From positions 125,509 through 189,508 of the forward strand of contig CAZSKP010000004.1 of NCBI GenBank assembly GCA_964607485.1: a stretch of 64,000 nucleotides of DNA, given 5' to 3'. Shown in pieces: positions 3 to 59,782 of the stretch. The position numbers and the translations under genes are program-made. Origin of the DNA: an uncultured bacterium. Lineage in GTDB: Bacteria; Abyssobacteria; SURF-5. The notes under the pieces were generated by a model. The model made no database searches. It was not told the origin of the DNA and was given only the letters and a program-made list of their open reading frames with translations. Every line of letters starts with the position of its first letter. The first letter of the stretch is position 1.

Positions 3-2042
3 GCCCTTACCGGCAATATCGCAAATTGTGGTCTTGTGGAAGTGCCGATGGGGACCTCGCTTCGTAAGATTATTTATGACATCGGCGGTGGAATTCCCGG
101 CGGCAGGGCATTTAAAGCCGTCCAGACCGGAGGCCCTTCAGGAGGCTGTCTGCCGTCGAGCTTCCTGGATCATCCCGTTGACTACGAGTCCCTTGCCAGC
201 GCGGGCTCAATCATGGGTTCCGGCGGCATGGTCGTTATGGACGAGAACACATGTATCGTGGATATCGCTCGATACTTCGTTGACTTCACGCAAAGGGAAT
301 CCTGCGGCAAATGCATGCCGTGCCGCCTTGGCACAAAACAGATGTTGGAAATCCTTGAGGACATAACACGAGGCAAGGGAAGGCCCGGAGATATCGACCT
401 GCTCGTTGACATAGGCGAAGCGGTCAAATCGGGTTCGCTTTGCGGTTTGGGGCAGACTGCCCCGAATCCGGTGCTCAGCACGATTCGGTATTTCAGGGAA
501 GAATACGAAGCCCATGTTAAGTACAAGAGATGTTCGGCAGCCGCGTGCAAGGAGATAATATCTTCCCCTTGCCAACATGCCTGTCCGATAAGCACGCAGG
601 CAGCGACCTATATTTCCATGATTGCTGAAAGCCGCTTCGACGAGGCGATGGACATAATTTGGATGGACAATCCACTCCCGTCGGTCTGCGGCAGGGTATG
701 TCATCATCCATGCGAGTTGAAATGCCAAGCGGGCAAATGGGGCGACCCCATCTCGATCAGGGCGCTCAAGAGATTTGTTACCGATTATGCAATCAGCAAT
801 GGAACCTACTCCGTCGAAGAAAGAACACCGACGAAAACCGAAAAGGTGGCGATTGTCGGTGCCGGGCCGGCAGGTTTGGCGGCGGGTCACTCCCTCGCCC
901 AGAAGGGATATAATGTTACTGTGTTCGAAGCCCTCCCGGTCGCCGGTGGCGCCGCAGCCGTGTACATACCGGAATACAGATTGCCGAAAGACATCCTCAA
1001 TCTTGACATCGAGAATATCAAGAAGACAGGCGTGGAAATAAGAACAAATACCAGAGTGGGAAAAGATATATCCTTCGACCAGCTTCGGGATGATTATAAT
1101 GCAGTGTTTATCGCTGCGGGAGCACACGAGTCACGAAAGTTGGGCGTTCCAAACGAAGACGCCGATGGCGTATTGGATGCCATGGAATTCCTGAAAGCCG
1201 TGAATCTCAAGAAGGGCGTCAAAGTAGGAAAACGGGTCGGCGTCATTGGTGGAGGCAACGCCGCGGTTGATGCCGCCAGGGTGGCGATGCGGCTCGAAGG
1301 GTGTGAGAAGGTTCACCTGATCTACAGGAGAACGCGGAACGAGATGCCCGCGTTCAAGGAGGAGGTGGACGCGGCGATTGACGAGGGCATTGACATCGTC
1401 TATCTCGCCGCTCCCTCCAAGATCGTGACACAGCAAGGGCGAATCACAGGAATCGAATGCATAAGGATGGAGCTGGGACCGCGTGACGAAAGCGGCAGGA
1501 GAAGACCTGTTCCTATCAAGGGATCGGAATTCGTCGTCGAGCTGGACACACTCCTCGTTGCGATCGGTGAAGTGCCCGATGTCTCATTTCTTGGTGAGAT
1601 GTGCGGCGTCGAAGTGTCAAAGAGAAACACGATCGCGGTAAATCGCGAAACACTCGCGACTAATGTAGAAGGGGTCTTCGCGGGAGGCGACATCGTGACC
1701 GGTCCGAATACGCTCATAGAGGCTGTCGCAGCCGGCAAGAGGGCGGCGGAATCCATCGACAGATACATTCGTGGCGAGAGCCTGGTGGGGGAATACAACG
1801 TCACACGACCTTCAACGTACTTGCCTCCGGTCGAACTGACGGAGGAAGAGATTGCAGAGGCTGAAAGAGCGGCCACTCCGCATCTCTCTATCGAACGCAG
1901 ACAAAGGAGTTTTGATGAGGTCGAACTCACACTCTCCGAAAAGGCGGCAATAAAAGAGGCAAGGCGCTGCCTCAGGTGCGATTTGGAGACTGAAGACGCC
2001 AAGGAATGGCTTGAACAAGCTGCGTCGATGAAGGGTGCTTAA
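3..2042 (+). CDS. NuoF/HydB-like NADH-binding subunit fused to a GltD-like FAD/NAD(P)-dependent oxidoreductase (5'-truncated by the window edge)
   Basis: Frame open from position 3 ([17 protein letters not shown]). NuoF motifs GGPSGG and [12 protein letters not shown]...LCGLG; GltD motifs [38 protein letters not shown] and C-terminal EARRCLRC. Confidence 0.9.
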
Positions 2043-2157
2043 ATGAGGAAAACCTCCTGTCATTTTTGGATGATCTGGAGATAATTAAGGCCGCCATTTC
2101 TGGGGCCGGTATTTCGTTCAATGCTGCGCATCTTCCATGACTTAAGGAGAAAGAAGC

Positions 2158-5106: not shown

Positions 5107-5143
5107 CGGGCTGAGCAGACTCCTCTCTTGACTTCTTTTGGTC

Positions 5144-5178
5144 AACGGGCATGACGACCGTCGTCATGCCCGTTTTCT
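5144..5178 (+). terminator. Putative intrinsic terminator after fdh
   Basis: Perfect 14-bp stem AACGGGCATGACGA-CCG-TCGTCATGCCCGTT followed by TTCT. Confidence 0.65.
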
Positions 5179-5230
5179 CATTCCATCTCCTCTCCCCATC
5201 GCCGCCATTGCAGAGCGACCGGCACTCAAC

Positions 5231-5333
5231 GGCGTGTTGCCCAAAACGTCCTGTCATTCCCGCGGAGCCTGTCCTCGACCCTGATCGGGGAGCGGGAAAC
5301 CAGCGTTGTCTCAGGAGCACTCGACAACAGGCC
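5231..5333. repeat. Degenerate MITE-like element (GGCGTGTTGCCCAAA...CAACAGGCC) enclosing a GTCATTCCCG-type half palindrome
   Basis: Same left end as at 58472 and 41187; internal GTCATTCCCGCGGAG...GCGGGAA. Confidence 0.5.
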
Positions 5334-5427
5334 ACTAAGAATGGCACACCCCGCCCCTTAAGGCACGAAGGGACACCCTTGGGAAAGGTTAGAAATAGCC
5401 AACTACTATTCGGAGCAGCAAATAGTT

Positions 5428-5510
5428 GTCATTCTGAGCGCAGCGAAGAATCTCGAAGAATACAGTAGCTTTGGGCTAAACATGAGATCCTTCACTTCGT
5501 TCAGGATGAC
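5428..5510. repeat. GTCATTCTGAG-family palindromic repeat
   Basis: GTCATTCTGAGCGCAGCGAAGAATCTC...GAGATCCTTCACTTCGTTCAGGATGAC; second copy at 58503-58608. Confidence 0.8.
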
Positions 5511-5759
5511 AAGCATGTGACGTATTTCATGCACCTTGTAGTAATTCAGGAAATTAACAACGCTGGCGAACTCTGCCATCTTCTTCATCTTCAACATTCC
5601 TGCAAAAAATGCTATAATGCCGGGAAAACAGAAGGGACTGTGAAACTCCATGTGCGTATAGAGAAAGACATGGAAGGGGCTTCCCATTATTCAACCCGTT
5701 GAGCTTTAACGAATCATAGAAGGAAGCGTCTTAATAAATGTCAAACTGGCAGGGAGGAA

Positions 5760-9530: not shown

Positions 9531-11523
9531 ATTCCAGCCGGCCCCACACCGACCAATTCCAGTCGATGGATGCACCTTCCGGATTGGATAATTCCACCCG
9601 CCTTGAGAATGTTCTGCTGTGAGGTGACAGCGCGTCACCCTTGAGGGCGGACCCGAAATCGATATACAGCTTTCCGTCGCAGGTTGTGCCGTCGGGATTT
9701 TTCACCTGGACAGTCGAGGGGCTTATGTATTCGATGACGAGCCTGAGCGGCCCCGCTATCTGCTGGGACGACACGTTGTAGAGACGGATGTCGCAGTATG
9801 TGACACTTCGCTTTCGGTCGAAGCGCGGGCGCGAGTGGCGCAGTAGTGTCAGAGAAGTCACATCGTCGCCCATCGGCGCGCAGCCGTAAGCACTGGCCGT
9901 GCACGTGTCGGGCTCGCTCTCATATTCACCGTCACCGACGATGAGCTGGACGACGTAGTCGCCCTCCGCGTCGACCTCGAACGTGGGAGTTGCGGACGTC
10001 TCGTCGGACAGCAGGGCGGAGCTGTCGGCGGGTTTGCTCAACATGCTCCAGCGATGTGTCAGCGGGTCGCCCTCAGGGTCGCTGCTGCCGCCGGCATCGA
10101 GCTGCACGATGTCGCCCACCGCGACCTCCTGGTCGGGCCCGGCATCGGCGACGGGCGGAAGATTGTACGTGCTGATCGCGACCGAATCGGGCTGGCTCGG
10201 GCATTTCCCGTCACTGACGACCAACTCGGCCACGTATTCGCCTGGAAGGTCAACGGTGAACGTGGGCGTCGCTGCGGTGGGGTCGGACAAAGTCGCTGCA
10301 CTGCCGGCGGGCGTGCCGACGAGCGTCCACATGAACGTCAGCGCATCACCGTCGGCGTCGGTGCTGCCCCGTCCGTCGAGGCTCACGACATCGCCGACAT
10401 GAACCGTTTGGTCGGAGCCGGCTTTTGCGACCGGACACGAATTGACGGTGCTCACGGTGACCGTGTCGGGTTCGCTGTCGCAGGCGCCGTCGTTGACGAC
10501 GAGCTCGGCCATGTATTCGCCTGAAAGATCAACGGTGAACGTGGTCGTTACTGCGATAGGGTCGGAAAGCGCCGCCGCGCTGCCCTCTGGTTTGCTCGAG
10601 AGCGACCACACGTAGGTGAGCGCATCACCGTCCGGGTCGGTGCTTCCGCCGCCGGCAAGCGTCACGATGTCGCCGAGCGCGACTGTCTGATCCGGTCCCG
10701 CGTTTGCGGTCGGACAGCTATTGCAGAATTCGTCTATTTCGCCGTTGCAGTTGTTGTCGATGCCGTCGTCGCACAGCTCCACTGCGCCGGGGTTAATCGT
10801 CGCATCGGCGTCATCGCAGTCCGTATTGTCGAGCACGTATCCGCCGGGGGCCTCGCACGTTTGGAGGGATACTGACGGGTCGCCGTATCCGTCTCCGTCG
10901 GCGTCCCGGTAATAGAGCGACCCCTCGACCCCTTCATCTATTTGACCGTCGCAGTCGTTGTCCACTCCGTCACAGATTTCGACGGCGCCGGGATGAATCG
11001 CCGGATTGGAGTCGTCGCAGTCGTCTCCGCCGCATGAGATACTGTCGTGCATGTCGCCGTCCGCGTCGCAGTCACACGCGTCGCCGACTCCGTCACCGTC
11101 CGTGTCCGCCTGGTCCGGGTTGTAGGTGAGCCGGCAATTATCGATTTCATCAGGCACACCATCGCCGTCGGAATCCGGCGCCATCACAACAACCGCATCT
11201 GAAGGGGGGGAGAACTGGCTGAAGTTTCCACATGTATCGACCGCTCGCAATTCGTAATAGTACGTGTTGTTCAGGCTCACGCTATCATCGGTCAGAGACG
11301 TGCCGGTGACGATACCGCTGTGTATCTTGGCGTAGGGACCGTCAGAGGCGTTTCCCCGGTAAACCTCGTATCCCGCAACATCGGGTTCGGGATTGGCCGT
11401 CCATGACAAGTGAACGGGCGGCTTAGGAACGAGGACATCAGCCCAACTCAAGGAATGTAAGCCTGCCAAAAGGCACAGTGCAATCAAGAAAGACCAGATT
11501 CGACGGGGATTGAGGTTTCGCAT
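9529..11523 (-). CDS. Secreted/surface protein: FN3, TSP3 Ca-binding repeats, two DCDD-type putative metal-binding motifs, three PKD/K319-like repeats
   Basis: Signal peptide [64 protein letters not shown] twice; three PxAxAGxDQxV repeats. An alternative GTG start lies at 11556. Confidence 0.85.
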
Positions 11524-22528: not shown

Positions 22529-23215
22529 ATGCTTAAGCAGCCAGAAGTGCACGATATAGAGGTCAGCGTCGCCATCGACGATCTTCTCGGCCCGCTCGGC
22601 TACGGGAAGGGCGGAGCGGTCGAGCCCTCTATCATGGAACAGATTCTGTCAGAAACCGACCGCTGCAAACAGACAATATACGGAAAGGCCATCCATGCCT
22701 GCGTGGGAATCACGCATGCCGCCGGCCGCGACGCCTTCGAGGCGAACGGCGTGACAATCAACGACGAGACTCTCACAAGCTCGCTCGACGGCGCAGAGTC
22801 GCTCGCCGTCGCCGTTTGCACGGTGGGCGCCGGGATAGATGAGCTCATCGGCGAACACTTCGGCCGCGGCGATTTTCTCGGGGGCATGATCGCCGACGTC
22901 TTTGCGAGCCGCGCCGTCGAAGCGGCCGCCGAAAAATGCGCGGCGCTCATCTGCGCCGAGGCGCGGAGGCACAATCTCTCGGCGTCGCGTCACCTCAGCC
23001 CGGGTTACGGAAAATGGGATGTGAGCGGCCAGCGGGCCGTGTTCGCATTGCTCGACCCGTCGCCGATAGGAGTGTCGCTGAACGAGCACTGCATGATGCA
23101 GCCGCGGAAATCCGTCTCTTTCGTCCTTCCGCTCCTGAAGGGTGAAGTGCGCCCCGAACAACGGCGCCACTGCCAAGAGTGCGGTTTTGAGAACTGCGGC
23201 TACAGGCGAGAATGA
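22529..23215 (+). CDS. B12-dependent methionine synthase activation-domain-like protein
   Basis: AVCTVG, SPGYG.W, IGVSLNEHCMMQPRKSVS, C-terminal CQECGFENCGYR. Confidence 0.8.
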   Translation: MLKQPEVHDIEVSVAIDDLLGPLGYGKGGAVEPSIMEQILSETDRCKQTIYGKAIHACVGITHAAGRDAFEANGVTINDETLTSSLDGAESLAVAVCTVGAGIDELIGEHFGRGDFLGGMIADVFASRAVEAAAEKCAALICAEARRHNLSASRHLSPGYGKWDVSGQRAVFALLDPSPIGVSLNEHCMMQPRKSVSFVLPLLKGEVRPEQRRHCQECGFENCGYRRE

Positions 23216-23255
23216 CGTATCCGGCATCGCCGGATGCGCGGGATGAAGAAATCTT

Positions 23256-24146
23256 ATGACTCTGCTGGAACGACTCAGCGCGGGTGAGAAACTCGTATTC
23301 GACGGCGCGATGGGCACGATGCTTCAGGCAAAGGGCCTTGGCGTCGGCGAGTGTCCGGAAGAATGGAACGCGTCGCACCCGGACGTCGTTCGGCAGATTC
23401 ACCAATCCTACTTCGATGTCGGCTGCGACATCGTGGAGACGAACTCATTCGGCGGAACCCGCCTGAAGTTTGCCCGCTTCGGACTGGCCGGCAGGGTGAG
23501 GGAGTTGAACCGCAAGGCCGCCGAAAACGCGCGCGCCGCAGCCGGGCCGAATCGTTACGTCGCCGGCTCGGTGGGCCCGACGGGCGAGTTCATCCAGCCC
23601 TACGGCAACCTGACGTATGAGGAGGTTCGCGACGCATTCCGCGAGCAGGCGAGCGCGCTCGAAGAGGGCGGAGCCGACATCATCTGTGTGGAAACGATGT
23701 CGGACCTGAACGAGGCACGGGCCGCCGTCGAGGCGGCGCGCGCGAGCACGAAGTGTGCCGTGTTCGCTTCGATGACGTTCAACCGAGACAAGCGGGGTTT
23801 CCGGACGATGATGGGCGTGGACCCCATGTCGGCCGCCGCGGCGTTGGAAAAGTACGGAGCGGACGTGATAGGCTCGAATTGCGGCGTCGGGCCGGAGGGA
23901 ATGTTTGACATCTTGAGAGAGATGCTCGAAGCCACGTCGAAGTTTCTGCTTGTCAAGCCCAATGCGGGCGTGCCCCGCCTCGAGGGCGGCAAGACAATTT
24001 TTCCCGAGACGCCTAAGGGGATGGCCGAAAAGATGCCTCCGCTGCTCGACATCGGCGTCAGAATACTCGGCGGCTGCTGCGGAACGACGCCCGAACACCT
24101 GCGCGAGATTGTGAGGGTAGTCAGGCCGCATACGGAGGGTTCATGA
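23256..24146 (+). CDS. Homocysteine S-methyltransferase domain (stand-alone MetH N-terminal module)
   Basis: FDGAMGTML, ETNSFG, GSNC, PNAGVP, GGCCGTTPEH Zn ligands. Confidence 0.92.
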   Translation: MTLLERLSAGEKLVFDGAMGTMLQAKGLGVGECPEEWNASHPDVVRQIHQSYFDVGCDIVETNSFGGTRLKFARFGLAGRVRELNRKAAENARAAAGPNRYVAGSVGPTGEFIQPYGNLTYEEVRDAFREQASALEEGGADIICVETMSDLNEARAAVEAARASTKCAVFASMTFNRDKRGFRTMMGVDPMSAAAALEKYGADVIGSNCGVGPEGMFDILREMLEATSKFLLVKPNAGVPRLEGGKTIFPETPKGMAEKMPPLLDIGVRILGGCCGTTPEHLREIVRVVRPHTEGS

Positions 24147-24946
24147 CGATGGAAGAATCCGAAGTAGTCTCTCCAAGCCGAATCGAGCGTCTGCTTGAAC
24201 TCGCCTGCGTGTACAACACCCCTCTGTCCATCACGACCGAAGCGCGCGACACGATGTATCGCTACAAGAGCCGGATGCTCGAAATGAACAAGGCGACCGG
24301 CTCGAGGTCGCTCATCATAGACCATCCCGTGACCGATGGGCCGGCGATTGCGCTCAAACCGGAAACGCTCCTCACCGTCTTCTTCGCGCTCGACAAGGAA
24401 CGGTTCATCTTTGAGACCGAGGTCCTGCGCAAGACCACGTTCGCCCTCGCCAGCCGGAGGAAGATATCGGTTCTCGAGATTGCGTATCCGAATGTCCTGT
24501 ACAGCGGCGAACGCCGGATGTATTACAGGGTGCCCACTCCGATGGGAAAACCGATTTCCGTCGAGTGCGGCGTGATCGGCGGCGTCGGTGACTGGCTCGT
24601 TCAGGAACCCGGCACGTGGAATTTCCCCTCGCATGTCCGGTTCGACGGGCGCATCCTGAACCTGAGCGTCGGCGGGATGGTCCTGGCCGTCAAGGAGGGC
24701 GGCAGCAGCAAGGCCAGGGTGGGGACGAAGCTGGGCCTGCGGTTCTCGCTCGCGCGCGATGAGACCCCCATTTCGCTGAAAGGGATAATCCGGCGGACGG
24801 GAACGAAGGCCTCCACCGGAGAGGAGACGGTGGCGATCGAGTTCATCGACATCGCCGAAAAATTCGAGTACAAACTGGCCATTAACCGATTGTACCGATA
24901 CGTCGTCGAGCGACAGCGAGAGATCATAAAGTCCGGCGCGAAATAG
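24143..24946 (+). CDS. YcgR-like PilZ protein (PilZN + PilZ)
   Basis: ERRMYYR and NLSVGG motifs; ATGA overlap with the upstream gene. Confidence 0.8.
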   Translation: MTMEESEVVSPSRIERLLELACVYNTPLSITTEARDTMYRYKSRMLEMNKATGSRSLIIDHPVTDGPAIALKPETLLTVFFALDKERFIFETEVLRKTTFALASRRKISVLEIAYPNVLYSGERRMYYRVPTPMGKPISVECGVIGGVGDWLVQEPGTWNFPSHVRFDGRILNLSVGGMVLAVKEGGSSKARVGTKLGLRFSLARDETPISLKGIIRRTGTKASTGEETVAIEFIDIAEKFEYKLAINRLYRYVVERQREIIKSGAK

Positions 24947-24959
24947 GATTTGCAATAGC

Positions 24960-25334
24960 ATGTCGAGCAGAAGTTCGAAGGCGTTTGAGAGATTCCTGTT
25001 AAAAAGAGGCGTCATCGATGAGGCCGCCCTGCGGGAAGTCGAATCGATGAAAGAGGACATGAACATCTCGTTGGGCGTGGTCGCAATGAACCGCGGACTG
25101 TTGACTTCGGAGCAGATCGGAGAAATCCTGGCTGCCAAGAAGAAGACGAAGAAGAGATTCGGACAGGCCGCCCTCCACCTGAAATTTCTCAACCGTGTCC
25201 AGCTCCGCGACCTCCTCGCCGAACAGGAGCAGGTGAACCTCGACGTGGGAGAACTGCTCGTCTTGACGGGCCACCTCTCATACGAACAACTCCAAAAAGA
25301 GCGCCGCGCCTTCGCCCGCGCAAAGAAGCGATAA
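24960..25334 (+). CDS. Small protein made of MshEN-like repeats
   Basis: About four repeats resembling (R)LGxxLxxxGxxxxxxLxxxLxxQ, e.g. SLGVVAMNRGLLTSEQI, RFGQAALHLKFL, DVGELLVLTGHL. Confidence 0.65.
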   Translation: MSSRSSKAFERFLLKRGVIDEAALREVESMKEDMNISLGVVAMNRGLLTSEQIGEILAAKKKTKKRFGQAALHLKFLNRVQLRDLLAEQEQVNLDVGELLVLTGHLSYEQLQKERRAFARAKKR

Positions 25335-25421
25335 GAACATGCCTTCCTGTACGCATACATGAACTCCGAAAACATGAAACTATCGCGGCCTCATTTCGCG
25401 ACCTTTGCGCCTTTGCGGTGA

Positions 25422-26192
25422 TTAGGAGATTCTTCTTTCACCTTCCGGCTTGAATCCGAAGAGCTCGCTCTGGATGATTCTCGTCACGAGCGTCGTCTGG
25501 TCCGCCGTGAAATATACGCCACGCGTCCGGTGTTCTTTCCTTCGATATTCACGCGCATGTTCTTCTGACCAGAAGAACACACTCTCCTTTCAGAACGCAT
25601 GGATGATGCATTTGTCCTCGATCTTCGAGAAATTGACATCCGGCACGAAGACGATCGGCTCGCATCCCTGCTCGGCGGCCTGATAATTCAGGTCGCTGTC
25701 GATTCTCATGCGCATCGGCCGGGAGCAGTGCGCGCATTCCGAGCTGACTTCCACCGACAGCGCTTCTCCGCGTAAGCGCCCTTGCACGAAGGGCGTTGCA
25801 AACGCATCGGCCGCTCAGGCGGCGTAAATCTGCTCGCCCGTGCTGAAGGTGAGATGGTGCGGCGTCCTTTCGACCGTCACCGGATACGCCCACACTGCCA
25901 GGCCTTCATCATTCCTGCAGATGAACGTCATGTGCCGTTCCAGGTCATCGAACACGGACCGCACGCGGTCGAGGGATATTGACAGTTTCTCCGCGATGAA
26001 TTCGGGCGAGATCGGCTCCTTGACTCTGGGGAGTTCTCTGACGATACAGTGGTGCACAGCTCGATGCTCGTCGGTCATGAACCGCAGGTCGGCGCGTATT
26101 TTATTCTTAGCCCTGCCAATCTGTTTCTCCCACAGAAACGGCGGTACCGAGAGCATGTAACGCCAAAGTCCGCTCATGAGTTTGCTGCTCAT
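25422..26192 (-). CDS. MerB (organomercurial lyase)-like protein, probable selenoprotein with two Sec (codons 126 and 201), 256 aa
   Basis: Single frame from ATG 26192 (RBS AAAGGAG) to TAA 25422 with in-frame TGA at 25815-25817 (YAA-U-AAD) and 25590-25592 (HAF-U-KESVFFWS), aligning to MerB YAWCALD and SFCCHVHFFAS. Confidence 0.85.
25555..25582 (-). promoter_or_regulatory. SECIS-like hairpin for the second UGA
   Basis: TGTTCTTCT-GGTC-AGAAGAACA, 9-bp stem extendable by three more pairs; loop begins 20 nt after UGA. Confidence 0.8.
25777..25795 (-). promoter_or_regulatory. SECIS-like hairpin for the first UGA
   Basis: CGCCCTT-CGTGC-AAGGGCG, 7-bp stem, G at loop position 2; loop begins 27 nt after UGA. 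Confidence 0.7.
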
Positions 26193-26256
26193 CGCCTCAC
26201 TCCTTTCCAGGTTCGAACGCCGATACCATCAAGGTTTCACGAAAGGGAAATTCCCT

Positions 26257-27354
26257 TCAAACTCGAATTCGCTTTCCCGTCTCCGCGTCGAACAAATGGA
26301 GCTTCTCGTCCGGGACGCCGTATCTGACCTGACTGCCCGGCTCGATGTCGGCGTATCCCAACACACGCGCGAGAAGCTTCAGATTCGCGGCATCGAGATA
26401 GATGAGCGTGTCGGCGCCCATGGCCTCGACCGCCGACACCTGCGCGGCCCCCGTCAGCGAACAGCCCTCCGAGGTCTCGCCGAGCCGAACGTCTTCGGGA
26501 CGGAAGCCCAGGACAACTTTTCCCGGCACCTGCTCGAATCGCTTCGCCGCCTGCGGCTTCAGCAGGAGCATGAGCCCGCCGCACGTGAGCTCCAGGGAAC
26601 CGAGCTTTGCCTCGCTCCCGCACTCGACGAAGTTCGTTGGCGGGTTGCCGAAAAAGCCTGCGACAAACCTGCTTTCAGGATTACGGTACAGTTCGGCGGG
26701 GGCGCCGACCTGTTCCAGTGCGCCCGCGTTCATCACGGCGATTCGCTCGCCGATCGTCATGGCCTCGGTCTGATCGTGGGTGACATACACCATCGTCGCC
26801 GCGAGCCTGTCGTGAATCTGCTTTATCTCCTGTCTGAGTTGCACCCGCAGGGATGCGTCAAGATTGCTGAGGGGCTCGTCGAAAAGGAAAATTTTCGGAT
26901 TGCGCACGAGCGCGCGGCCGAGCGCAACCCGCTGGCGCTGTCCGCCGGAAAGCTCTTTCGGCCTCCGCCCGAGCAGGTCGGAGATGCCGAGCATGCCCGC
27001 CGCCTCCATCACGCGCGAGCGGACCTCCTGCTTGGGGAACCCGCGCATCTTCAGGCCGAACCCCAGGTTCTGCTCGACGTTGAGGTGGGGATAGAGCGCG
27101 TAATCCTGGAACACCATCGCGATGTCGCGGTCGCGCGGAGGCACGTCGTTGGCGCGCCTGCCGCCGATGAAGACCTCGCCCTCGGTGGGCGCTTCGAGGC
27201 CCGCTATCAGCCTGAGCGTGGTCGATTTTCCGCTGCCCGACGGGCCGACCAGCACCATGAGCTCCCGTTCCGACACTTCGATATTGAGGGCGCGCACGCC
27301 GACCGCGCCGTTTTTATAGAGCTTGGAAAGGTTCTTGAGCACGAGCGCCGCCAT
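26257..27354 (-). CDS. MalK/UgpC-type sugar ABC transporter ATP-binding protein
   Basis: GPSGSGKST, MVFQDYALYPH, LSGGQRQR, FLFDEPLSNLDA, C-terminal TOBE-like region. Confidence 0.95.
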   Translation of the reverse strand: MAALVLKNLSKLYKNGAVGVRALNIEVSERELMVLVGPSGSGKSTTLRLIAGLEAPTEGEVFIGGRRANDVPPRDRDIAMVFQDYALYPHLNVEQNLGFGLKMRGFPKQEVRSRVMEAAGMLGISDLLGRRPKELSGGQRQRVALGRALVRNPKIFLFDEPLSNLDASLRVQLRQEIKQIHDRLAATMVYVTHDQTEAMTIGERIAVMNAGALEQVGAPAELYRNPESRFVAGFFGNPPTNFVECGSEAKLGSLELTCGGLMLLLKPQAAKRFEQVPGKVVLGFRPEDVRLGETSEGCSLTGAAQVSAVEAMGADTLIYLDAANLKLLARVLGYADIEPGSQVRYGVPDEKLHLFDAETGKRIRV

Positions 27355-27356
27355 GT

Positions 27357-27875
27357 TCACCCCAACAGTTCGCGAACCCTGCGCCCCAATTTCCGTCTGC
27401 GCCGAAACGAGAAGCCCATAACCAGCATCCATTTCAAGACGACATAGGCGACGATGCCGAGCACCGCACCGTACAGCGCGGCAAAGATGATGTCGGGAGT
27501 CGCCGCGACCAGCGCGCCCGTGACCTTGAACGCCTTGTTCGCATCGTTGATTCTCCGGCTCAAGTCCTCGCCAAGGAAGAATCTGAGCGATTCCCCGAAC
27601 CGCTGTTCTTTCCCGATGAGGGGATAGAGCGCCTTGGCCGCCGTGTACTCGGCGGCGGCGAGCATTCCCAAGAACGGCGCGCTGTACTTGGCAACGAAAT
27701 CGAACAGGCCGAGAACGGCACGGGCGGGCGCCGAGCGCCTCCGCTGAGGACCGTATGTCCTCGCTATCTCGCGCACGTCGTCGCGGTCGACAGTGGACGG
27801 GAGAAAATCCAGCTCGCGGTCGAGAAGTCGGTTCCTGGCGATGTTCCTCTTCAAGCGTTTTCCGTACGTTGTCAT
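27357..27875 (-). CDS. Hypothetical membrane protein
   Basis: 172 aa, RBS GGAG, ends 2 nt before the ABC ATPase start; C-terminal TM. Confidence 0.65.
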   Translation of the reverse strand: MTTYGKRLKRNIARNRLLDRELDFLPSTVDRDDVREIARTYGPQRRRSAPARAVLGLFDFVAKYSAPFLGMLAAAEYTAAKALYPLIGKEQRFGESLRFFLGEDLSRRINDANKAFKVTGALVAATPDIIFAALYGAVLGIVAYVVLKWMLVMGFSFRRRRKLGRRVRELLG

Positions 27876-32157: not shown

Positions 32158-33336
32158 TTATTCCCCCAATTCCTTCATCGCTGATCTCTTGGCCGCGTCA
32201 TATACGTGTTTCAAGGGCACGCTGTGGCTGCGCGCGATTTTCCTGCAATCTTCGAATTCGGGCGAGACGGACATCAATTTCCCTTCTCCCGTTCCCACCT
32301 TCACTCTGACCGGCCCCCACTCGGTGGACACCTCTATCACCTTGCGCTCCAGCTTCAGCCGCGCCTCACGGTGATATCTTACACCAAACGTGGTGGATTC
32401 TGAAAATAATATCGAAGCCAGAGAGGATGTGTCGGCCGGCTCGCACAGTACGGTGAGGAGAGTGCCGGGCCTCGTCTTCTTCGCCTGTATGGGCGTGAGA
32501 TACGCCTCCAGCGCCCCTCTTTCAAACAGCAGCTCCATGAGATACTCGAAATTTTCCGGATTCATGTCGTCGATGGTGGTGCTCATGACCGTAACGTCGT
32601 CGCCGGCGTAGGCCTCCGTCGGCTCTCCGACGACGGCCCGCAGCAGGTTGGGCCACTCGGGAAACTCGCGCTTGCCCGCGCCGTAGCCGTGGAACAGCAC
32701 CTTCTGCGGGGGAAGCGGGCCGAAGCTCTTCGCGAGCGACCTCAGGATGACGGCGCCCGTGGGCGTGACGAGCTCGGCCTGTGGGCCGCGTGAATAGATG
32801 GGGATGCCCTCGAGCAGCTTCATCGTCGCGGGCGCGGGCACCGGGAGCACTCCGTGCCTGCACTCGACGAAGCCGCTCCCCACGTTGACGGGCGACGAAT
32901 GCACTTCGTCGATTCCCAGCCTGTCGAGTCCGACGAGCGCGCCGACCACATCGACGATCGAGTCGATTGCGCCCACCTCGTGAAAACGGATCTTGTCGGG
33001 CGTCGTGGAATGAATCGCCGCCTCGGTATCCGCCAGCAGGGTGAAAATCCGCTCCGCCTTGTCGCGTAGTCCCTGGGGCAGGGAGCTTGAGTGGAGAAGT
33101 TCGAGGATGTGGTTGAGTCCGCGCTCGCTGGGCTGGGGTTCCGTCACATCGACGAAGAAGCTGGTGGCGGTCAAGTGCCGCCGCGAGGTCTTTTGCGCGC
33201 GTAGTTCGTAGCCCTCGAGCGGAAGCAGGCGCAGCCCTTCTCGCAGGTCCTCGATGTCAAGGCCCGCGTCGAGGAGGGAGCCTACGAGCATGTCGCCGCT
33301 GATGCCGGAGAAACAGTCGAAATAGATATGTCTCAC
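32158..33336 (-). CDS. larC: Nickel pincer cofactor biosynthesis protein LarC
   Basis: YFDCFSGISGDM, FHEVGAIDSIVD, PVPAPAT, ELVTPTGA, TIDDMNPE, PEFEDC. Confidence 0.95.
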   Translation of the reverse strand: MRHIYFDCFSGISGDMLVGSLLDAGLDIEDLREGLRLLPLEGYELRAQKTSRRHLTATSFFVDVTEPQPSERGLNHILELLHSSSLPQGLRDKAERIFTLLADTEAAIHSTTPDKIRFHEVGAIDSIVDVVGALVGLDRLGIDEVHSSPVNVGSGFVECRHGVLPVPAPATMKLLEGIPIYSRGPQAELVTPTGAVILRSLAKSFGPLPPQKVLFHGYGAGKREFPEWPNLLRAVVGEPTEAYAGDDVTVMSTTIDDMNPENFEYLMELLFERGALEAYLTPIQAKKTRPGTLLTVLCEPADTSSLASILFSESTTFGVRYHREARLKLERKVIEVSTEWGPVRVKVGTGEGKLMSVSPEFEDCRKIARSHSVPLKHVYDAAKRSAMKELGE

Positions 33337-33354
33337 TGATTTTCTCCGGAGGGC

Positions 33355-34104
33355 TTATTTCCGCCTCGCGATGATACTGGCAAAGTAGCCCGCGCCGAAT
33401 CCGTTATCTATGTTGACCACCGAAACGCCCGGAGAGCAGGTGTTCAGCATTCCCAGGAGAGCCGCCAGCCCGTCGAAGCTCGCGCCATAGCCCACGCTGG
33501 TAGGGACGGCGACGACAGGGCATTCTACCAGACCGCCCACGACGCTTGCAAGTGCTCCCTCCATGCCGGCCGCCACGACGATGGAGTCGGATTTCGATAT
33601 GTCGTTTCTCCGGTCGAACAGCCTGTGTATTCCCGCCACGCCGACGTCGTATATCCGCGTCACGCGGCATCCCATCATCTCGGAGGTGACGGCGGCCTCC
33701 TCGGCCACGGGAATGTCGGAGGTGCCGGCGGTGATGATGGTGACTTTGCCCTTGCGTCGTCCTATCGGACGCACGACGATCGTCATCGCGCGGGCGTCCC
33801 GGTTGTAGCGGGCCTTCTTGTGGATTGCGCGGACGGAGTTGAATGCTTCGGGTGAGACCCTCGTCGCCAACACGTTGCATTCGCGCTCGACCATCTTGTC
33901 CACGATGGCCACTATCTGCTCCGAGGTCTTGTTCTCGCACAGGATCACCTCGGGAAATCCTCTTCGGAGGTGGCGGTGGTGGTCGAGCTTGGCGAATCCG
34001 AGGTCTTCGTAGGGAAGCGACTTGAGCGCCGACATCGCGTCGTCAACGCTCATCTTGCCTCGCGCGACGGCGAGCATAATCGAGCGGAGTTTGTCGGGGT
34101 GCAT
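33355..34104 (-). CDS. larB: NCAIR-mutase-like LarB
   Basis: DHHR..R.GFPE, AGTSDIPVAEEA, DVGVAGIHR, AGMEGAL, PTSVGYG, VNIDNGFGA. Confidence 0.95.
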   Translation of the reverse strand: MHPDKLRSIMLAVARGKMSVDDAMSALKSLPYEDLGFAKLDHHRHLRRGFPEVILCENKTSEQIVAIVDKMVERECNVLATRVSPEAFNSVRAIHKKARYNRDARAMTIVVRPIGRRKGKVTIITAGTSDIPVAEEAAVTSEMMGCRVTRIYDVGVAGIHRLFDRRNDISKSDSIVVAAGMEGALASVVGGLVECPVVAVPTSVGYGASFDGLAALLGMLNTCSPGVSVVNIDNGFGAGYFASIIARRK

Positions 34105-34123: not shown

Positions 34124-37100
34124 TCATATTTTCTTCCTTGAGCTTTTCTTGAACATGGTTCCGAACACGGACTCCTTCTTGTACTGCTTCGACATGCCTA
34201 TCGTCACCAGGATATCCCGTCCGGTTATCTCCTCTACTATAGCATGAAGATAGCCCGAAGCGGAATCTGGGAGCCTGGCGATGCTCTCGCAGTCGTCGAT
34301 CAGCACGACGTGCGAATTGGCGAGCTTGTTGAGAAGGCCGTTCCAATCGAAGGTGGGCGTGAGCGCGAGCATCTCCGCAAGCTTCTCGACCGAAAGCAGG
34401 GAAACCGGCCCCTTGAAGATTCCCCGCAGCGTGTTGCACAATGCGTTGAAGAAATGGTTGCGGCGCTGCTGGTCATTCTCGATGACCAGCAGGGGGAACT
34501 TGTTGCGCCATTTCTTGTTCGGGTTCCTGAAGGCCTCGTGGAAGTCCTCAAAGACCTGGCTTCCTCGGAAGTTGCTCGTCGTGAGGTCGGGGTCGGGCGA
34601 CAGGAACTCATCCAGGAAATCCTTCTGTTTTTCGGCGACCTCCGGCTCTGCGACCGCTTCCGACTCCTCCGCGACTCCTTCCTCGACCACCTGCTGTTCC
34701 TCTTCCGGAGCGGCGACCGTCGCACGCGCAACGGATGCTATCGCCTCGGCAGCTTCCTTCCCTCGGCTGATGATGTCCGGATGCCCCTCCAGCTTCACGA
34801 GCAGTCCGCTCTCGAGGAAGTGGAGCAGATACTCCTGCAGGTAGTTCATCTTGATTGGGGGCACCTTCGACGCCAAGACGACCTGTGCGTCCTTATCCGT
34901 CAACGCCTTGAGGAAATTATACAGTTGAATCTGGTCGTCGGCGGACACATTTGAGACGTCAAAGTCGTCAATGATGAGCAGCCGGAGCGCTTCCTGCCAC
35001 TGAGCGACTGTCGCCGGGTCTGTCTTTACCATATTCAGGAGCGACGTCAGCGAGACCAACTCGGCTGTCACTTCGGGGTCCTCCGACGTGGCCTCCTCGC
35101 CGATAGCGTGCAGGATGTGAGTTTTTCCGCAATGCGGAGGTCCGTATAGGCACAGAGGATTATACAGCTCAGCGATGTTCCGGGCTATCTTTTCGGCCAT
35201 GTTCACCGTGAACGCATCGGTTTCGGAGACCTTCAGGCCTTCGAAGGTGTGCATCCACTCGACTTGGCGCAAGCTCTCCAAAACTTCGGGGGCGACCTTG
35301 ACCGGCTCCTCCGGCGCCTCGGCTTCGACCGAGGGTTTCGGCTCGTCCGCTTGAGCCTCCGCCGGAACGCTCTCCGGAACGACGGCCTCAACGGGCCGCT
35401 CCTCAGCCCGCTCCTCAGTCCTGACCCTTTCCGCGCCGGGTTCCATTTGAGCCATCTTCGACCTCAGGGCATCGGCCTGCTTGCGCTCCTCTTTGAGCTG
35501 TGCGTCGAACCCTTCGCGAACCTTCGTCAGTTCGTTAACGGCGTCTTTGACCTGACCCTTGAGCGTGCTTGTTGCTTCTTTGTGTTTGGACTTCAACCGT
35601 GCAATCTCTTCGTCCTTCGATGCGACGGCGGCCTGAATGGCTTCCTTTTCACGGGCTCCGGCCGACGCGATCGCTTCGTCTTTCTCCGTCACCAGTTTTT
35701 CCAGCTCTACTACCTGCGCAAGAAGCTTCTTCTCCGCAGCGTCCTTCTCCTCTTCGAGCTCGGCCAGACGGCTTTCAAGCCGCCCGATCCGCTCCTGTCG
35801 GGATTCGGCCTCCTTCTCCACTTTTGCTTTTTCGGATTCGAGCCCGCCCGCCTGCTTCTTGGCCTTTCCGGCCTCCGACTTCAGCCTTTCGTAAGCCGCC
35901 TGCAGCTCGGAATAGTCCTGGCGAACCATGGCAAGCGTCTTCTCTTTTGCGGAGAGGTCGGCCTCGAGCGACGAGAATTTCTCTTTTGCTCCCGAGTCCT
36001 CTGCGGTCTGCTTCAGGAAATCTTCGCGCATCGAGTCGAGCGTGTTGTGGAGGTCGCTTATTCGGCGATCCTTATCCTTCATCAACTGCTTCTGATTCTC
36101 AGTCTCCAGCTCCGCTTCTTCCGCCGTCGTTTTGAGCTCGAGAATGCGGTCGGAGGCCTCTCTCAGCATTGTCTCGAGCGATGCGCTGGTCTCGCGGATC
36201 TCCTTTTCCTTCTCCGCGAACTGGGCGCGTTCGGCGTCGAGCTTGGCCGAGAGGTCGGATGCGCGGGCCTGCGTTTCCCCCAGCTCCTTGCGCAGTTCGC
36301 TGAGCTGACCCTCGCTCGCTTTGCGCTTGTTCTCCGCCTCCTCGACCGCCTGCGAAAGTTGCTGCTCGATGCCCGCCTTCTCCGCGGACAGCGAGGCCAT
36401 CTCGGCCTCCAGCGTGGAGAGTTTCTCGCTCAGGCCGGCCATCTGTTCGGCGCTTGACTGGAGCTCCCGGCTGCGTTTCTCAAGTTCGTCGTTGAGCTTC
36501 GAGATGTGCTCGGACGCGCTCTTCTCCTTCTCGGCCAGCAGGTGCTCGTTTTGCCTCAGCCGGTCATCGAGTTCCGTGCTCTGGGCCGTGAGGCGCTCGA
36601 TCTCCGCCGACGCCTGTTGAAGCTGGCCCTCGATTGACGCTTTGGCATCCGACAGCGCCTTCTCTTGTTCTGCCCACTGTGCGCTCTGCTCCTCGATCTG
36701 CCTGGCCGAGGTGTTCCGGACTTCCTCGACCTGCTGGGCCAGTTCGGATGCCCGGGCCTCGGCTTCGCCGAGCTTCGCCTGGAAGTCGGCCAGTTGCTGT
36801 TCGGCCGCCTCCAACTGGCGGTTGGATTGTTCGAGAGAACCGGACAGCTTCTGCTCGGAATCTTCTTTTTCTTTCGTCAGGGCTGTAAGGTCCTTCGACA
36901 GGCGGGAGACCTCGGCGTTGAGAGTCTCCATCTCCTTCTGATTCGCCTTCACTCCCTTGTCGCGCTCATCCAGTTCGGCTCTGAGGTTTCGGAGGTCGCG
37001 GTCGCGCCGCTTGATCTCGTCCTTGAGCTTGCTGATGCGCTTCGACTCGTCCTTCTCTTTGGACACGAGCAGTTGGTCGCGTTCGTTCAACTTCTCCTGA

Positions 37101-39358
37101 AGGTCGCGGGCTGCCGCGTTGAGCTTCTCAATCTCCGAATCCTTGCCTGCAATCGTCGAGTTGCGCTCTTCCACGGTCCCGCTCAGGGCTGCGACCTCGC
37201 CCGACAGGGCATCTATCTTCGACCGCAGTTCGTCCCGCTCAGAGGATACTTTATTGACCTGCTCCGCCAGGGTCCCGTTCTCGGAGCGGGCCTTCTCAAG
37301 CTCCGCCTCGATTGCTTCGACGCGGCCGGAGAGTTCCTGCGCGCGCTGGTCGGCGGATTGCGCGTTCGAGCGCTCGGCGTCGAGCGATTCCGAAAGCTTC
37401 CCGGCTTCGCTTCGCAACTGCGCTTCGAGTTCGGCTGCGGCGGCCAGCATGCCGTCCTTTTCCGAGACGATGCGCTCAAGCTCCGAACGCCCGGTGTCGC
37501 TTGACTTCCTGAGTTCTTCGAGCGAAGCCACGGCCGAAGCAAGCTCGTTCTCGATGCCTTTTCGCTTTTCGATTTCCGATTCCAGCCTGCCCGCTATCTC
37601 CAGCGCTTCCTTCTGCCTCTGCTGCAGTTCTCTGCTGACAGAGTCCAGGTGAGCCTGCCGTTCGGCGTTCTGTTCTTCCGTTCCCGTCCTGATTGAGTCG
37701 AGCTCTTGCTGCTTTGCCTCAAGCGAGGCGATCAACTGCTGTCCCCGCTCCGTCTTCTCTCGAATGGCGGCCGCGTGCTGCTTGGCGTCTGCTTCGAGTT
37801 TTGAGCGGGTCTCCGCAAGCTGCTTGGCGAGCTGCTCGCGTTTTTGGTCGCCTGTGCCGTGCAGCTCGAGCGCCTTATTGAGCTCTTCCGACCTTTGTGC
37901 CAGTTGTTCTTCGAGTTCACCGACGCGTTCGTTGAGACCCTCGATTGTCTTTTCCAGCAGGAGATTTTCGTTGTGCGCCTCGGCCGTCAGTTCCCGCAAT
38001 TCCGATTTTTCCTTGTCCTGCTGGACGATGCGCATCTCGCGCTCTTCGCTCAGGAGCTTGAGTTTCTCCTCCTTGTCTTCGAGCTGTATTCTCAGGGCAT
38101 GCAGTTCGTCTTCCTTGTCCTTCTTCAGTTGTTCCAGTTCCGTCCCGAGAGTTTTTGCGGCTCTCTCCGAGTGCTTCTGCTCATCGGCGCTGGCGGCCAG
38201 ATTGTCCGTGGCCCTTGAGAGCATTTGCTCCAGCTCTACTATCTTCGAATCTCTCTCCGAAAGGGTCTTCTCGTAGTCCGTTTTGAGCTTGTCGGTGAGC
38301 TTATCCCGCTTCTCTATCTTCTTGGTGAGGTCGGCTATTTCACTGGAAATGAGCTTCTCCTGCGATTGCAGGGTGCTGTCCTTGTTGCTCAATTCCTTCT
38401 CAAAGGCCTGAACGCGGGCGGAAAGCTCGGACGCCTCGGCCGCGGCCGTTTGCTCGCGAGATGCAGCCGCTTCGAGTTCGCTCTTGAGCTTCTGCGTTTG
38501 CTTGACCTGTTCGGCGAGTTTCTGTTCGAGCCGCTCGATTGTGGCGTTGAAGTCGCCTTCACGCTTCTTGGCCTGCGACTGCACCCATGAGCCGTATATC
38601 TGCTCTGCCGTGGCGGCGGCTTTATCTTCGCCCGTCTCGGACCGGATGACCGACAGGAACTCTTCCACGTTTTCTTTGGTCAGAGTCTGGCGGGTGAGCG
38701 TGGAGAATGTTTTCAGGTGGCCGGGCAGTTTCTTAAGATAGGCCACATCCTTCCCGGCTTCACGCATGAGTTTTTGCAGGATAGCGACGTCCAGACGCAG
38801 GCCCAGCTGCTCGCACTCCCGTTTGAGTATCTTAAGGAGAGTCTCGGGCTGAGGTGTGCCGAGGGGCGCATCTATTCCGCCCCGGAGCCGGCTGAAGAAA
38901 CGTTTGTCGAAGCCTTTCAGCTTCTCGATTGGGTACGACGAGGCCAGCAGAACCTGCTTGCCGTTGTCAACGAACGTGTCGAAGAGCGCGTAGAATCTCT
39001 CGCGGATCTTGGTATCGAGGCTGAAGCGCTCGATGTCATCGACTATCAGCAGGTCCTTGCGGCTGTATGCCTTGTATATGAATTCCTCCGAGCCGCCGTT
39101 TGAACCATTCGAATCTTCTCCAAACAGCAGCCTCTCAATCGGAAGGTGGTCGGAAATATAGAGCAGGGATATCTCCGGATGGGCGATGGTCAACTCCGAA
39201 CTCACGGCCAGGAGCAGATGTGTCTTGCCGGAGCCGCGCTCTCCGTGGATGAGCAGGGGGGAATAGCCCTTCTCGAGATTGACGACGGCTTTGCACAGAG
39301 CCACCGCAAACTTGTTGGATTCGTCCACCTCGAAAGAATCAAGCTTCAGTTCAGGCAT
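34124..39358 (-). CDS. 1744-aa protein: DnaA/Hda-like AAA+ domain, long coiled coil, second DnaA-like AAA+ domain and a third degenerate one
   Basis: YSPLLIHGERGSGKTHLL/LLIVDD/FFSRL; YNPLCLYGPPHCGKTHIL/LLIIDD; FPLLVIENDQQRRNH/VVLIDD; E/K/A/L-rich heptads in between. Confidence 0.88.
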   Translation of the reverse strand: MPELKLDSFEVDESNKFAVALCKAVVNLEKGYSPLLIHGERGSGKTHLLLAVSSELTIAHPEISLLYISDHLPIERLLFGEDSNGSNGGSEEFIYKAYSRKDLLIVDDIERFSLDTKIRERFYALFDTFVDNGKQVLLASSYPIEKLKGFDKRFFSRLRGGIDAPLGTPQPETLLKILKRECEQLGLRLDVAILQKLMREAGKDVAYLKKLPGHLKTFSTLTRQTLTKENVEEFLSVIRSETGEDKAAATAEQIYGSWVQSQAKKREGDFNATIERLEQKLAEQVKQTQKLKSELEAAASREQTAAAEASELSARVQAFEKELSNKDSTLQSQEKLISSEIADLTKKIEKRDKLTDKLKTDYEKTLSERDSKIVELEQMLSRATDNLAASADEQKHSERAAKTLGTELEQLKKDKEDELHALRIQLEDKEEKLKLLSEEREMRIVQQDKEKSELRELTAEAHNENLLLEKTIEGLNERVGELEEQLAQRSEELNKALELHGTGDQKREQLAKQLAETRSKLEADAKQHAAAIREKTERGQQLIASLEAKQQELDSIRTGTEEQNAERQAHLDSVSRELQQRQKEALEIAGRLESEIEKRKGIENELASAVASLEELRKSSDTGRSELERIVSEKDGMLAAAAELEAQLRSEAGKLSESLDAERSNAQSADQRAQELSGRVEAIEAELEKARSENGTLAEQVNKVSSERDELRSKIDALSGEVAALSGTVEERNSTIAGKDSEIEKLNAAARDLQEKLNERDQLLVSKEKDESKRISKLKDEIKRRDRDLRNLRAELDERDKGVKANQKEMETLNAEVSRLSKDLTALTKEKEDSEQKLSGSLEQSNRQLEAAEQQLADFQAKLGEAEARASELAQQVEEVRNTSARQIEEQSAQWAEQEKALSDAKASIEGQLQQASAEIERLTAQSTELDDRLRQNEHLLAEKEKSASEHISKLNDELEKRSRELQSSAEQMAGLSEKLSTLEAEMASLSAEKAGIEQQLSQAVEEAENKRKASEGQLSELRKELGETQARASDLSAKLDAERAQFAEKEKEIRETSASLETMLREASDRILELKTTAEEAELETENQKQLMKDKDRRISDLHNTLDSMREDFLKQTAEDSGAKEKFSSLEADLSAKEKTLAMVRQDYSELQAAYERLKSEAGKAKKQAGGLESEKAKVEKEAESRQERIGRLESRLAELEEEKDAAEKKLLAQVVELEKLVTEKDEAIASAGAREKEAIQAAVASKDEEIARLKSKHKEATSTLKGQVKDAVNELTKVREGFDAQLKEERKQADALRSKMAQMEPGAERVRTEERAEERPVEAVVPESVPAEAQADEPKPSVEAEAPEEPVKVAPEVLESLRQVEWMHTFEGLKVSETDAFTVNMAEKIARNIAELYNPLCLYGPPHCGKTHILHAIGEEATSEDPEVTAELVSLTSLLNMVKTDPATVAQWQEALRLLIIDDFDVSNVSADDQIQLYNFLKALTDKDAQVVLASKVPPIKMNYLQEYLLHFLESGLLVKLEGHPDIISRGKEAAEAIASVARATVAAPEEEQQVVEEGVAEESEAVAEPEVAEKQKDFLDEFLSPDPDLTTSNFRGSQVFEDFHEAFRNPNKKWRNKFPLLVIENDQQRRNHFFNALCNTLRGIFKGPVSLLSVEKLAEMLALTPTFDWNGLLNKLANSHVVLIDDCESIARLPDSASGYLHAIVEEITGRDILVTIGMSKQYKKESVFGTMFKKSSRKKI

Positions 39359-54793: not shown

Positions 54794-54962
54794 CGGGAAC
54801 GCTCGCTCTCAGCGCGCCCCGGTCGCCCACGCGAGCCAGGCGCCTTCTGGTGTGTCCTTCGGGTTCGTCCCTTCGCACTAAGCGCACAATGCCGACCTGC
54901 GCATCAAAGGGAAAGTATAGCCGAAAGCCGCGAAAAAATAAAGCTCTAATTCGATGCGGTCG

Positions 54963-56255: not shown

Positions 56256-56264
56256 CTCGAACCC

Positions 56265-57202: not shown

Positions 57203-57258
57203 TGGATCTCAGGGTAATCGACGTAGTTGTTATGTAAGCTGCACCCGCATATTCTATT

Positions 57259-57286
57259 GTAGGGGCGCAGCATGCTGCGCCCCTAC
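57259..57286. repeat. GTAG-type REP perfect palindrome
   Basis: GTAGGGGCGCAGCATGCTGCGCCCCTAC; related copies at 61204 and 63979. Confidence 0.85.
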
Positions 57287-57317
57287 GAGAACTCATAAGA
57301 ACGATGTTGACAAACCG

Positions 57318-58415: not shown

Positions 58416-58434
58416 CGGTCTGTTCTAAGACATT

Positions 58435-59703: not shown

Positions 59704-59782
59704 TTGTTCGGCTCCCTTGGTCATTGTAGGTATATCGGGGACACCATAAACATGGTGTCCCCAATATAACCCTTGGTGGCGT

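Follow-up and report, generated by a model that had tools for sequence, protein, structure and literature searches.

The minus strand of the 64,000-nucleotide stretch of DNA analyzed here (the window) carries, at positions 25422..26192, a reading frame that is open except for two in-frame TGA codons. The question raised by this locus is whether the frame represents a single functional gene in which both TGA codons are read as selenocysteine (Sec) and, if so, what its product does.

Structure of the reading frame

Direct translation of the minus strand gave a single frame of 256 codons plus the closing TAA (25422-25424). As stated in the preliminary description, this frame (26192-25422) is interrupted only by the TGA triplets of codons 126 (25815..25817) and 201 (25590..25592). 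The start ATG (26192-26190) is preceded by a Shine-Dalgarno-like sequence AAGGAG (26200..26205) located 7 nt 5′ of it; both were read directly from the minus-strand sequence. Retranslation reproduced exactly the motifs quoted earlier for the surroundings of the two codons, YAA-U-AAD at codon 126 and HAF-U-KESVFFWS at codon 201. With translation table 11 the frame breaks into three ORF fragments, 25815-26192 (125 aa), 25590-25787 (65 aa) and 25422-25580 (52 aa). A search of the region 25000-27700 found no promoter-like site.

Predicted MerB fold and location of the TGA codons in the active site

The homology to MerB that had been proposed for this frame was borne out by a Pfam search. The MerB family PF03243 was matched with 54.9 bits (gathering threshold 27; E = 1.1e-14), the match spanning residues 107-233 of the protein and positions 3-117 of the 126 profile positions. 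The NCBIfam models of MerB (EC 4.99.1.2), NF009710 and NF033555, gave sub-threshold scores (53.8 against 193 and 48.7 against 200, respectively). With the model of the MerB-like protein SaoL, NF040728, the score was 39.5 bits (cut-off 140), for a match limited to residues 58-167.

A structure of the product was predicted with AlphaFold2 using a 32-row alignment as input and Cys substituted for Sec. The model (pLDDT 89.4, pTM 0.88) contains one confident MerB-fold domain that covers all three ORF pieces. When it was compared with the PDB using Foldseek, MerB and MerB2 accounted for the best 11 matches (E between 3.5e-11 and 2e-6), with TM up to 0.79 (target-normalised) and an identity of ∼18-20% to the MerB structures, while the next match had E = 0.054. 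On the predicted structure, the product belongs to the MerB fold. A PDB search with the single sequence yielded only a marginal match to MerB2 (E = 0.34), whereas the profile of the family (alignment A3) matched the MerB chains 5c17 (E = 2.4e-10) and 1s6l (E = 1.4e-7).

The essential residues of MerB are given as Cys96, Asp99 and Cys159 in passages of PMC8261052 and of Haft and Gwadz (bioRxiv 10.1101/2022.07.06.499078). The MerB motifs LYAWCALD and SFCCHVHFFAS were seen in the aligned PDB MerB chain. In the profile alignment with 1s6l, 3f2g and 5c17, U126 is placed on Cys96 (LYAWCALD), D129, encoded by the GAT codon at 25806..25808 (minus strand), on the proton donor Asp99, and U201 on Cys159 (SFCCHVHFF), while C153 corresponds to the structural Cys117. 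The earlier claim that the TGA codons fall on both catalytic Cys columns, with the Asp kept, is thus upheld by the alignment.

Conservation of both TGA codons in related loci

A scan with one genome per species provided 24 related loci. All their carriers are MAGs, assigned to Smithellaceae, Syntrophaceae, Desulfomonilaceae or Desulfobacteraceae, labelled 'delta proteobacterium', or unclassified. In 21 of the 24 loci the gene is intact and carries TGA at the same two columns, and the TGA-retaining loci are ∼50-80% identical at the protein level. The occurrence of two TGA codons at the same columns in 21 intact homologous genes is far beyond chance. The remaining three loci are damaged: L022 and L023 have one frameshift each, with both TGA codons and their conserved flanks persisting in the shifted frame, and L024 is an internal-deletion remnant which retains only the second TGA and its hairpin. 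Both TGA codons are therefore present in 23 of the 24 loci, and TGA 201 in all 24, L024 included.

The collapse of conservation after the first TGA, which the preliminary description had named as evidence against its reading, does not occur, and none follows the second TGA: the mean pairwise identity of the 22 intact genes was 63.3% for residues 1-125, 62.3% for residues 127-200 and 66.7% for residues 202-247. Asp occupies column 129 in the 21 translated genes, as it does in alignment A3 in all 16 rows of the U/U type.

These results leave a negligible probability for a pseudogene or for three independent small ORFs mistaken for one gene. The three fragments produced with table 11 and the damage found in 3 of the 24 loci would agree with such a reading, but both TGA codons are kept in nearly every locus, the three segments are equally conserved, and a single confident MerB-fold domain extends over all three pieces. 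Judged on this sequence evidence, the frame is a real gene and not a pseudogene.

Homologues in protein databases

The homologues were analyzed in two sets, the first comprising the 120 listed matches and the second 147 of 150 listed representatives (P0106, P0112 and P0118 were excluded because they were already in the first set). In the second search, the number of representative clusters was 511 with a limit of E<=1e-3 and 215 with one of E<=1e-10, which indicates a large family.

Of the 120 matches listed, 66 stop precisely at residue 125, and 40 extend over the full length and carry W at both TGA columns; eight carry Cys126 and stop at 200, and one has Ser126 together with Cys201. Among the 147 representatives listed, 93 stop at 125, 18 are shorter fragments, eight again combine Cys126 with a stop at 200, and two have Ser126 and Cys201. 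The W/W proteins, which are known here as proteins alone, are read as products of code-4 gene calls on short contigs, in which TGA was translated.

In total, 16 homologues (8 + 8) among the matches listed have Cys126 and end at column 200, and we infer a TGA at column 201 of these Cys126 members from where the proteins end, all of them stopping exactly at column 200. Cys at column 201 was found in P0035 and P0127. The expected alternation at both columns was therefore observed, with TGA in the related loci, Cys at 126 in the 16 proteins and Cys at 201 in these two. Among the matches listed, none has Cys at 126 and 201 together, and some members (P0124, P0126, P0130 and P0131) have neither Cys nor Sec at column 126. 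The Cys126/Sec201 members P0046 (MBI5477877.1), P0122 and P0129 share 32-47% identity, the same length and the same motifs with the di-Sec gene of the window, but have Cys and not Sec at the first site, an arrangement like that of SaoL.

A FastTree phylogeny of the N-terminal 125 columns (208 rows) was poorly resolved. The Cys-at-126 forms are scattered on it, with 11 changes by parsimony, at least three of which are forced by well-supported branches; from a tree of such resolution, no direction of the Cys/Sec change at column 126 can be claimed.

Recoding of UGA and SECIS-like hairpins

TGA is the commonest ordinary stop codon in the window, where it ends 24 of the 37 Pfam-supported ORFs. Of the 22 family genes, 12 likewise terminate in TGA (by the rule applied, a third TGA was taken as a stop), and sequence conservation stops at that point. 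Since TGA is the commonest normal stop, and serves as such in the family genes as well, the code has not been reassigned.

The published consensus of the bSECIS element (PMC13188914) calls for a stem of 4-16 bp, a loop of 3-9 nt whose first two positions include a G, a spacing of 16-37 nt to the UGA, and an MFE of −7.5 or lower. A SECIS-like hairpin that fits this consensus was found downstream of each of the two UGA codons on the minus strand. Hairpin 1 (25777..25795), placed 26 nt past UGA 126, has a 7-bp stem (CGCCCUU/AAGGGCG), a CGUGC loop and an MFE of −10.9 kcal/mol. Hairpin 2 (25555..25582), placed 19 nt past UGA 201, has a GGUC loop and an MFE of −14.8 kcal/mol (z = −4.31); its stem comprises 12 bp in the window, with eight contiguous pairs in all relatives.

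Across the 22 sequences, 96.1% of the cells of hairpin 1 and 92.5% of those of hairpin 2 are paired, compared to 30-66% when the partners are slid. Covariation is thin. None was detected in hairpin 1, in which five of the seven pairs are invariant and shuffles are uninformative, and in hairpin 2 a single pair covaries, from U-A to C-G in L010, L011 and L018, a change that replaces Trp by Arg and alters the partner Ser codon synonymously. For this reason, we relied on synonymous sites instead. The mean codon entropy of conserved degenerate codons in the 22 sequences was 0.46 within the hairpins, compared to 1.26 outside (Mann-Whitney p = 8e-6), and a single codon was used in all 22 sequences at 7 of 15 such positions within the hairpins versus 1 of 76 outside; in hairpin 1 alone this was true of five of the six scored codons. 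The frozen synonymous sites indicate that the RNA is constrained beyond the protein, although the peptides encoded by both hairpins are themselves strongly conserved, which makes it hard to separate the two constraints fully.

Genes for Sec insertion were also sought. No selA, selB, selD or tRNA-Sec gene was found in the 64-kb window or in the 24 related loci; tRNA scans of the same sequences detected no tRNA whatever, and an Rfam scan of the window at gathering thresholds gave no matches. Two other TGA-interrupted candidate frames of the window were translated, and as neither was coding-like, they provide no independent sign of Sec use.

This lack of visible Sec machinery in the window, together with the full-length proteins obtained by gene calls with TGA as Trp, could speak for UGA codons that are read through or recoded as an amino acid other than Sec, by near-cognate insertion of Trp or Cys or by a local change of the code. 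We regard this as very improbable, given that TGA is the main stop in the window and a frequent one in the family, that the UGA codons lie on the columns of the catalytic Cys, where some relatives have Cys instead, that both are followed by hairpins of the SECIS model with frozen synonymous sites, and that the carriers are MAGs of the deltaproteobacteria, a selenoprotein-rich group. Recoding as Sec is the preferred reading, and the prediction of a selenoprotein of the MerB fold that has Sec in place of both metal-ligating Cys and retains the Asp is strongly supported.

Genomic context

In the window, the gene starts 65 nt 3′ of a UgpC-type ABC ATPase gene (26257-27432), the product of which scored 439.3 with the model of this subfamily (cut-off 432) and 147.8 with that of SaoA (cut-off 360). 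On its 3′ side, c-di-GMP-related genes (24143-24946 and 24960-25334) and a homocysteine S-methyltransferase gene (23256-24146) lie in convergent orientation. Elsewhere in the window, the gene for a formate dehydrogenase alpha subunit (2158-5106) is uninterrupted. Apart from the gene itself, no synteny was detected between the window and the related loci.

In the related loci, a regulator gene is usually located directly upstream on the same strand. It encodes a 149-residue MarR-family protein in 12 loci (a partial copy lies at the contig edge of L011) and a MerR-family protein of ∼190 residues in seven, while a 4HBT thioesterase gene is found 3′ of the family gene in four. The regulators and the thioesterase are the only conserved neighbours in the 24 loci, and no mer, hgc, ars or SAO genes are conserved beside the family there. 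The regulator copies examined, namely the MerR-type protein of L002 and three MarR-type proteins, contain no cysteine and thus give no sign of thiolate metal sensing. The window had been described as having no mer or sao genes, and this holds among its 81 ORFs of at least 150 aa, a scan outside which ORFs of merP or merT size fall.

Comparison with SaoL and canonical MerB

SaoL is presented in passages of Haft and Gwadz (bioRxiv 10.1101/2022.07.06.499078) as the MerB-like organometallic lyase of SAO loci. It shares with the di-Sec protein the MerB fold, a selenoprotein nature, an origin in anaerobes, and shortening at UGA in databases. According to the same passages, Sec of SaoL occupies the MerB Cys159 column, the equivalents of Cys96 and Asp99 are retained, and the protein is proposed to act on organometallic compounds. 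The two proteins differ in several respects. In SaoL, the only Sec is part of a CU dipeptide and the first site is a Cys, whereas the di-Sec protein has an F-U sequence (HAF-U-K) and Sec at both sites, 75 residues apart; unlike the SaoL gene, the di-Sec gene needs two SECIS elements. It also lacks the nine-gene SAO neighbourhood of SaoL, and the adjacent ABC ATPase fails the SaoA cut-off. Finally, the di-Sec protein has an extra N-terminal segment with the conserved sequence VPPFLWEKQI that is absent in SaoL. The separation from SaoL made in the preliminary description therefore stands, and an identification as SaoL was rejected on score, CU motif and neighbourhood.

With canonical MerB (1S6L, 3F0P, 3F2F) and MerB2 (5C17), the di-Sec protein shares the fold, the N-terminal helical domain and the core, its N-terminus being longer than that of MerB. 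The di-Sec gene, unlike merB, has no merA, merT, merP or gene for a cysteine-bearing MerR nearby (within the scope of the scans given above), and its carriers are anaerobic deltaproteobacterial MAGs, whereas MerB is found on resistance plasmids or transposons. An assignment to canonical MerB was rejected because of the NCBIfam scores below cut-off and the missing mer context.

Table 1 of PMC13188914, an inventory from 2026 that counts 119 families and subfamilies of prokaryotic selenoproteins, contains only one MerB-type entry, 'MerB-like organometallic lyase SaoL, CU, 1 Sec'. In a full-text literature search, in which the families of Haft and Tolstoy (2025) were covered through this table, no MerB-type selenoprotein besides SaoL was found. 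Under the rule used in PMC13188914, a different Sec position defines a distinct subfamily, and the di-Sec gene is thereby distinct from SaoL. The di-Sec MerB-like family is apparently both widespread and undescribed.

Proposed function

We consider it probable that the gene encodes a di-Sec MerB-fold selenoprotein, with a separate SECIS element for each UGA, that cleaves carbon-metal bonds, organomercurials being the leading candidate substrate. Both the lyase activity and the substrate are what we infer from the sequence, protonolysis of a carbon-metal bond being the likeliest function. The evidence strongly supports a cytosolic product and the recoding of each UGA by its own SECIS hairpin, located in the coding sequence just downstream. 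The selenolates of Sec126 and Sec201 would clamp the metal of the organometallic substrate, and Asp129 would protonate the carbon, so that the carbon-metal bond would be cleaved and the hydrocarbon released, as in MerB. The family would operate without MerA or other mer genes, mostly as a single gene following a MarR- or MerR-type regulator.

To our knowledge, protonolysis of the carbon-mercury bond is the only chemistry demonstrated for the MerB fold. For this reason, and in view of two other observations contained in passages of PMC10114901, namely the cleavage of carbon-mercury bonds by a synthetic selone that imitates the MerB site and the chemical demethylation of MeHg by selenoamino acids, organomercurials such as methylmercury are placed first among the candidate substrates.

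The substrate of a genuine di-Sec MerB-fold enzyme might instead be another organometal or organometalloid, for example an organoarsenic, organotin, organolead, organoselenium or organotellurium species, or an unknown carbon-metal metabolite. We think this unlikely, though worth serious weighing: the only chemistry that we know to be demonstrated for the fold is that on mercury, the full geometry of a Cys/Asp/Cys-type triad is kept, and no particular alternative metal is indicated, but the gene has no mer context, the regulators examined lack metal-binding cysteines, and the family falls outside the MerB equivalog models. In addition, passages of Haft and Gwadz state that MerB binds other metals and that Sec at the metal site leaves the organomercurial specificity of SaoL uncertain.

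It is also conceivable, if quite improbable, that the di-Sec protein is not a lyase and serves in the high-affinity binding or the hand-off of a metal or of selenium, or in redox reactions through a Sec126-Sec201 diselenide. Most selenoproteins are redox proteins (PMC13188914), NosL is a Cu(I)-binding protein of the MerB fold (in a passage of PMC10114901), and a single residue change turns MerB to copper binding (in a passage of Haft and Gwadz); the members with neither Cys nor Sec at column 126 point in the same direction. Against such a role, the Asp three residues past the first Sec, invariant in the U/U rows and the translated genes, is a lyase signature and not that of a simple binding site, and neither a thioredoxin-like motif in the protein nor a redox partner nearby was found.

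If the di-Sec protein is, as we favour, an organomercurial lyase, the choice of Sec has consequences for both capture and release. In almost all of the members seen the codon is UGA and not one for Cys, a preference implying that selenium is strongly advantageous for this chemistry. Sec would bind mercury more tightly than Cys and stay deprotonated. It could provide tighter capture at trace concentrations, against sulfide and thiols in anoxic habitats. With binding so tight, release of Hg(II) from two selenolates should be difficult without a MerA-like acceptor; catalysis could be slow, and the reaction might even be stoichiometric. For genomes with MerB only, the problem of product release is raised in a passage of PMC8261052.

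Implications for selenoprotein diversity and methylmercury demethylation

Most selenoprotein families carry one Sec (2026 inventory, PMC13188914). It is rare for Sec to occupy both catalytic metal ligands of an enzyme when these are far apart and a separate SECIS element is needed for each, and the protein would represent a new family or subfamily.

The di-Sec family occurs in lineages that dominate anoxic, methylmercury-producing habitats, and the mechanism of demethylation in such habitats is described as unresolved in a passage of PMC10114901. A bolder proposal, to which we assign a rather low probability, is that the gene is the founding example of a MerB-fold clade, nearly always with two Sec and widespread in syntrophic and sulfate-reducing Desulfobacterota, that provides the enzyme so far missing for mer-independent demethylation of methylmercury under anaerobic conditions. 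Were this true, two selenolates would allow the enzyme to capture picomolar to nanomolar MeHg in competition with sulfide and thiols and to cleave it without MerA. Net methylmercury production in anoxic sediments would then become genetically predictable from this gene alongside hgcAB.

Surveys of merB that require Cys96, Asp99 and Cys159, or that depend on standard gene calls, miss the di-Sec family entirely, and NCBIfam release 20.0 contains no dedicated model for it. The gene is therefore a concrete case for a selenoprotein model in annotation pipelines. It had been anticipated that standard pipelines would call the gene a pseudogene; this was not the case, as public annotation instead shortens its relatives to fragments or reads TGA as Trp. 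All three named GenBank records of family fragments are annotated as 'hypothetical protein'.

Regulators upstream of the MerB-like lyase gene

In most of the related loci found in other genomes, a regulator gene lies directly 5' of the MerB-like lyase gene and on the same strand, and it is of one of two alternative types, belonging to either the MerR or the MarR family. The MerR-family regulator (~190 aa, with a C-terminal domain that received no assignment) was located about 570-660 nt upstream in seven loci (L002, L003, L007-L009, L013 and L014). The MarR-family regulator (149 aa) was found about 500-810 nt upstream, likewise on the strand of the lyase gene, in 12 loci (L004, L005, L010, L012, L015, L017-L021, L023 and L024). 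Cysteine was absent from the regulator copies inspected, i.e. the MerR-type protein of L002 and three of the MarR type. Neither of these regulators is present in the window.

Damaged copies and apparent domain fusions

Three related loci (L022, L023 and L024) carry damaged copies of the lyase gene, at about 10001-10800. A single frameshift was detected in each of L022 and L023, while in L024 an internal deletion joins codon ~25 to the second TGA. Because all three sequences originate from MFD-labelled MAGs, assembly indels and real decay are indistinguishable as the source of this damage. In two predicted homologous proteins, P0047 and P0073, the MerB-like sequence is joined to a second domain, either subtilase-like or a GNAT acetyltransferase; these are probably artefacts of read-through of TGA stops and not real fusions.

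Methyl-transfer neighbours

In L001, the closest relative locus, a gene encoding a URO-D / MtaA-CmuA-like methyltransferase (4608-5594, + strand) is placed directly upstream of the lyase gene. In the window, a homocysteine S-methyltransferase gene and a Met_synt_B12-like gene (22529-24146, + strand) converge on the MerB-like gene. The methyl-transfer neighbours in these two closest loci are of different kinds, and their presence may be due to chance.

Other genes in the window

A gene for a NuoF/GltD-like flavoprotein is followed by that of a formate dehydrogenase alpha subunit (3-5106, + strand). The latter protein (982 aa; TIGR01591 match, 860.7 bits) is encoded without an internal TGA, and is therefore not a Sec form. 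Overlapping long ORFs of 492 and 652 aa, either or neither of which may be coding, occupy both strands at 54946-56912; no match in Pfam was obtained for them. A cluster at 56265-60967 (- strand) combines hemB with a pair of NirD/L-like siroheme decarboxylase genes and a pair of radical SAM genes, one of which encodes a SPASM domain. It resembles the alternative haem pathway, which is typical of sulfate reducers, and is consistent with the window deriving from a member of the Desulfobacterota. Adjacent LarC-like (Ni_insertion) and LarB-like (AIRC) genes (32158-34104, - strand) suggest synthesis of the nickel-pincer cofactor. An ORF at 34124-39358 (- strand) encodes an unusual giant protein of 1744 aa, with an N-terminal DnaA-type ATPase domain and a second AAA domain near residue 1400.
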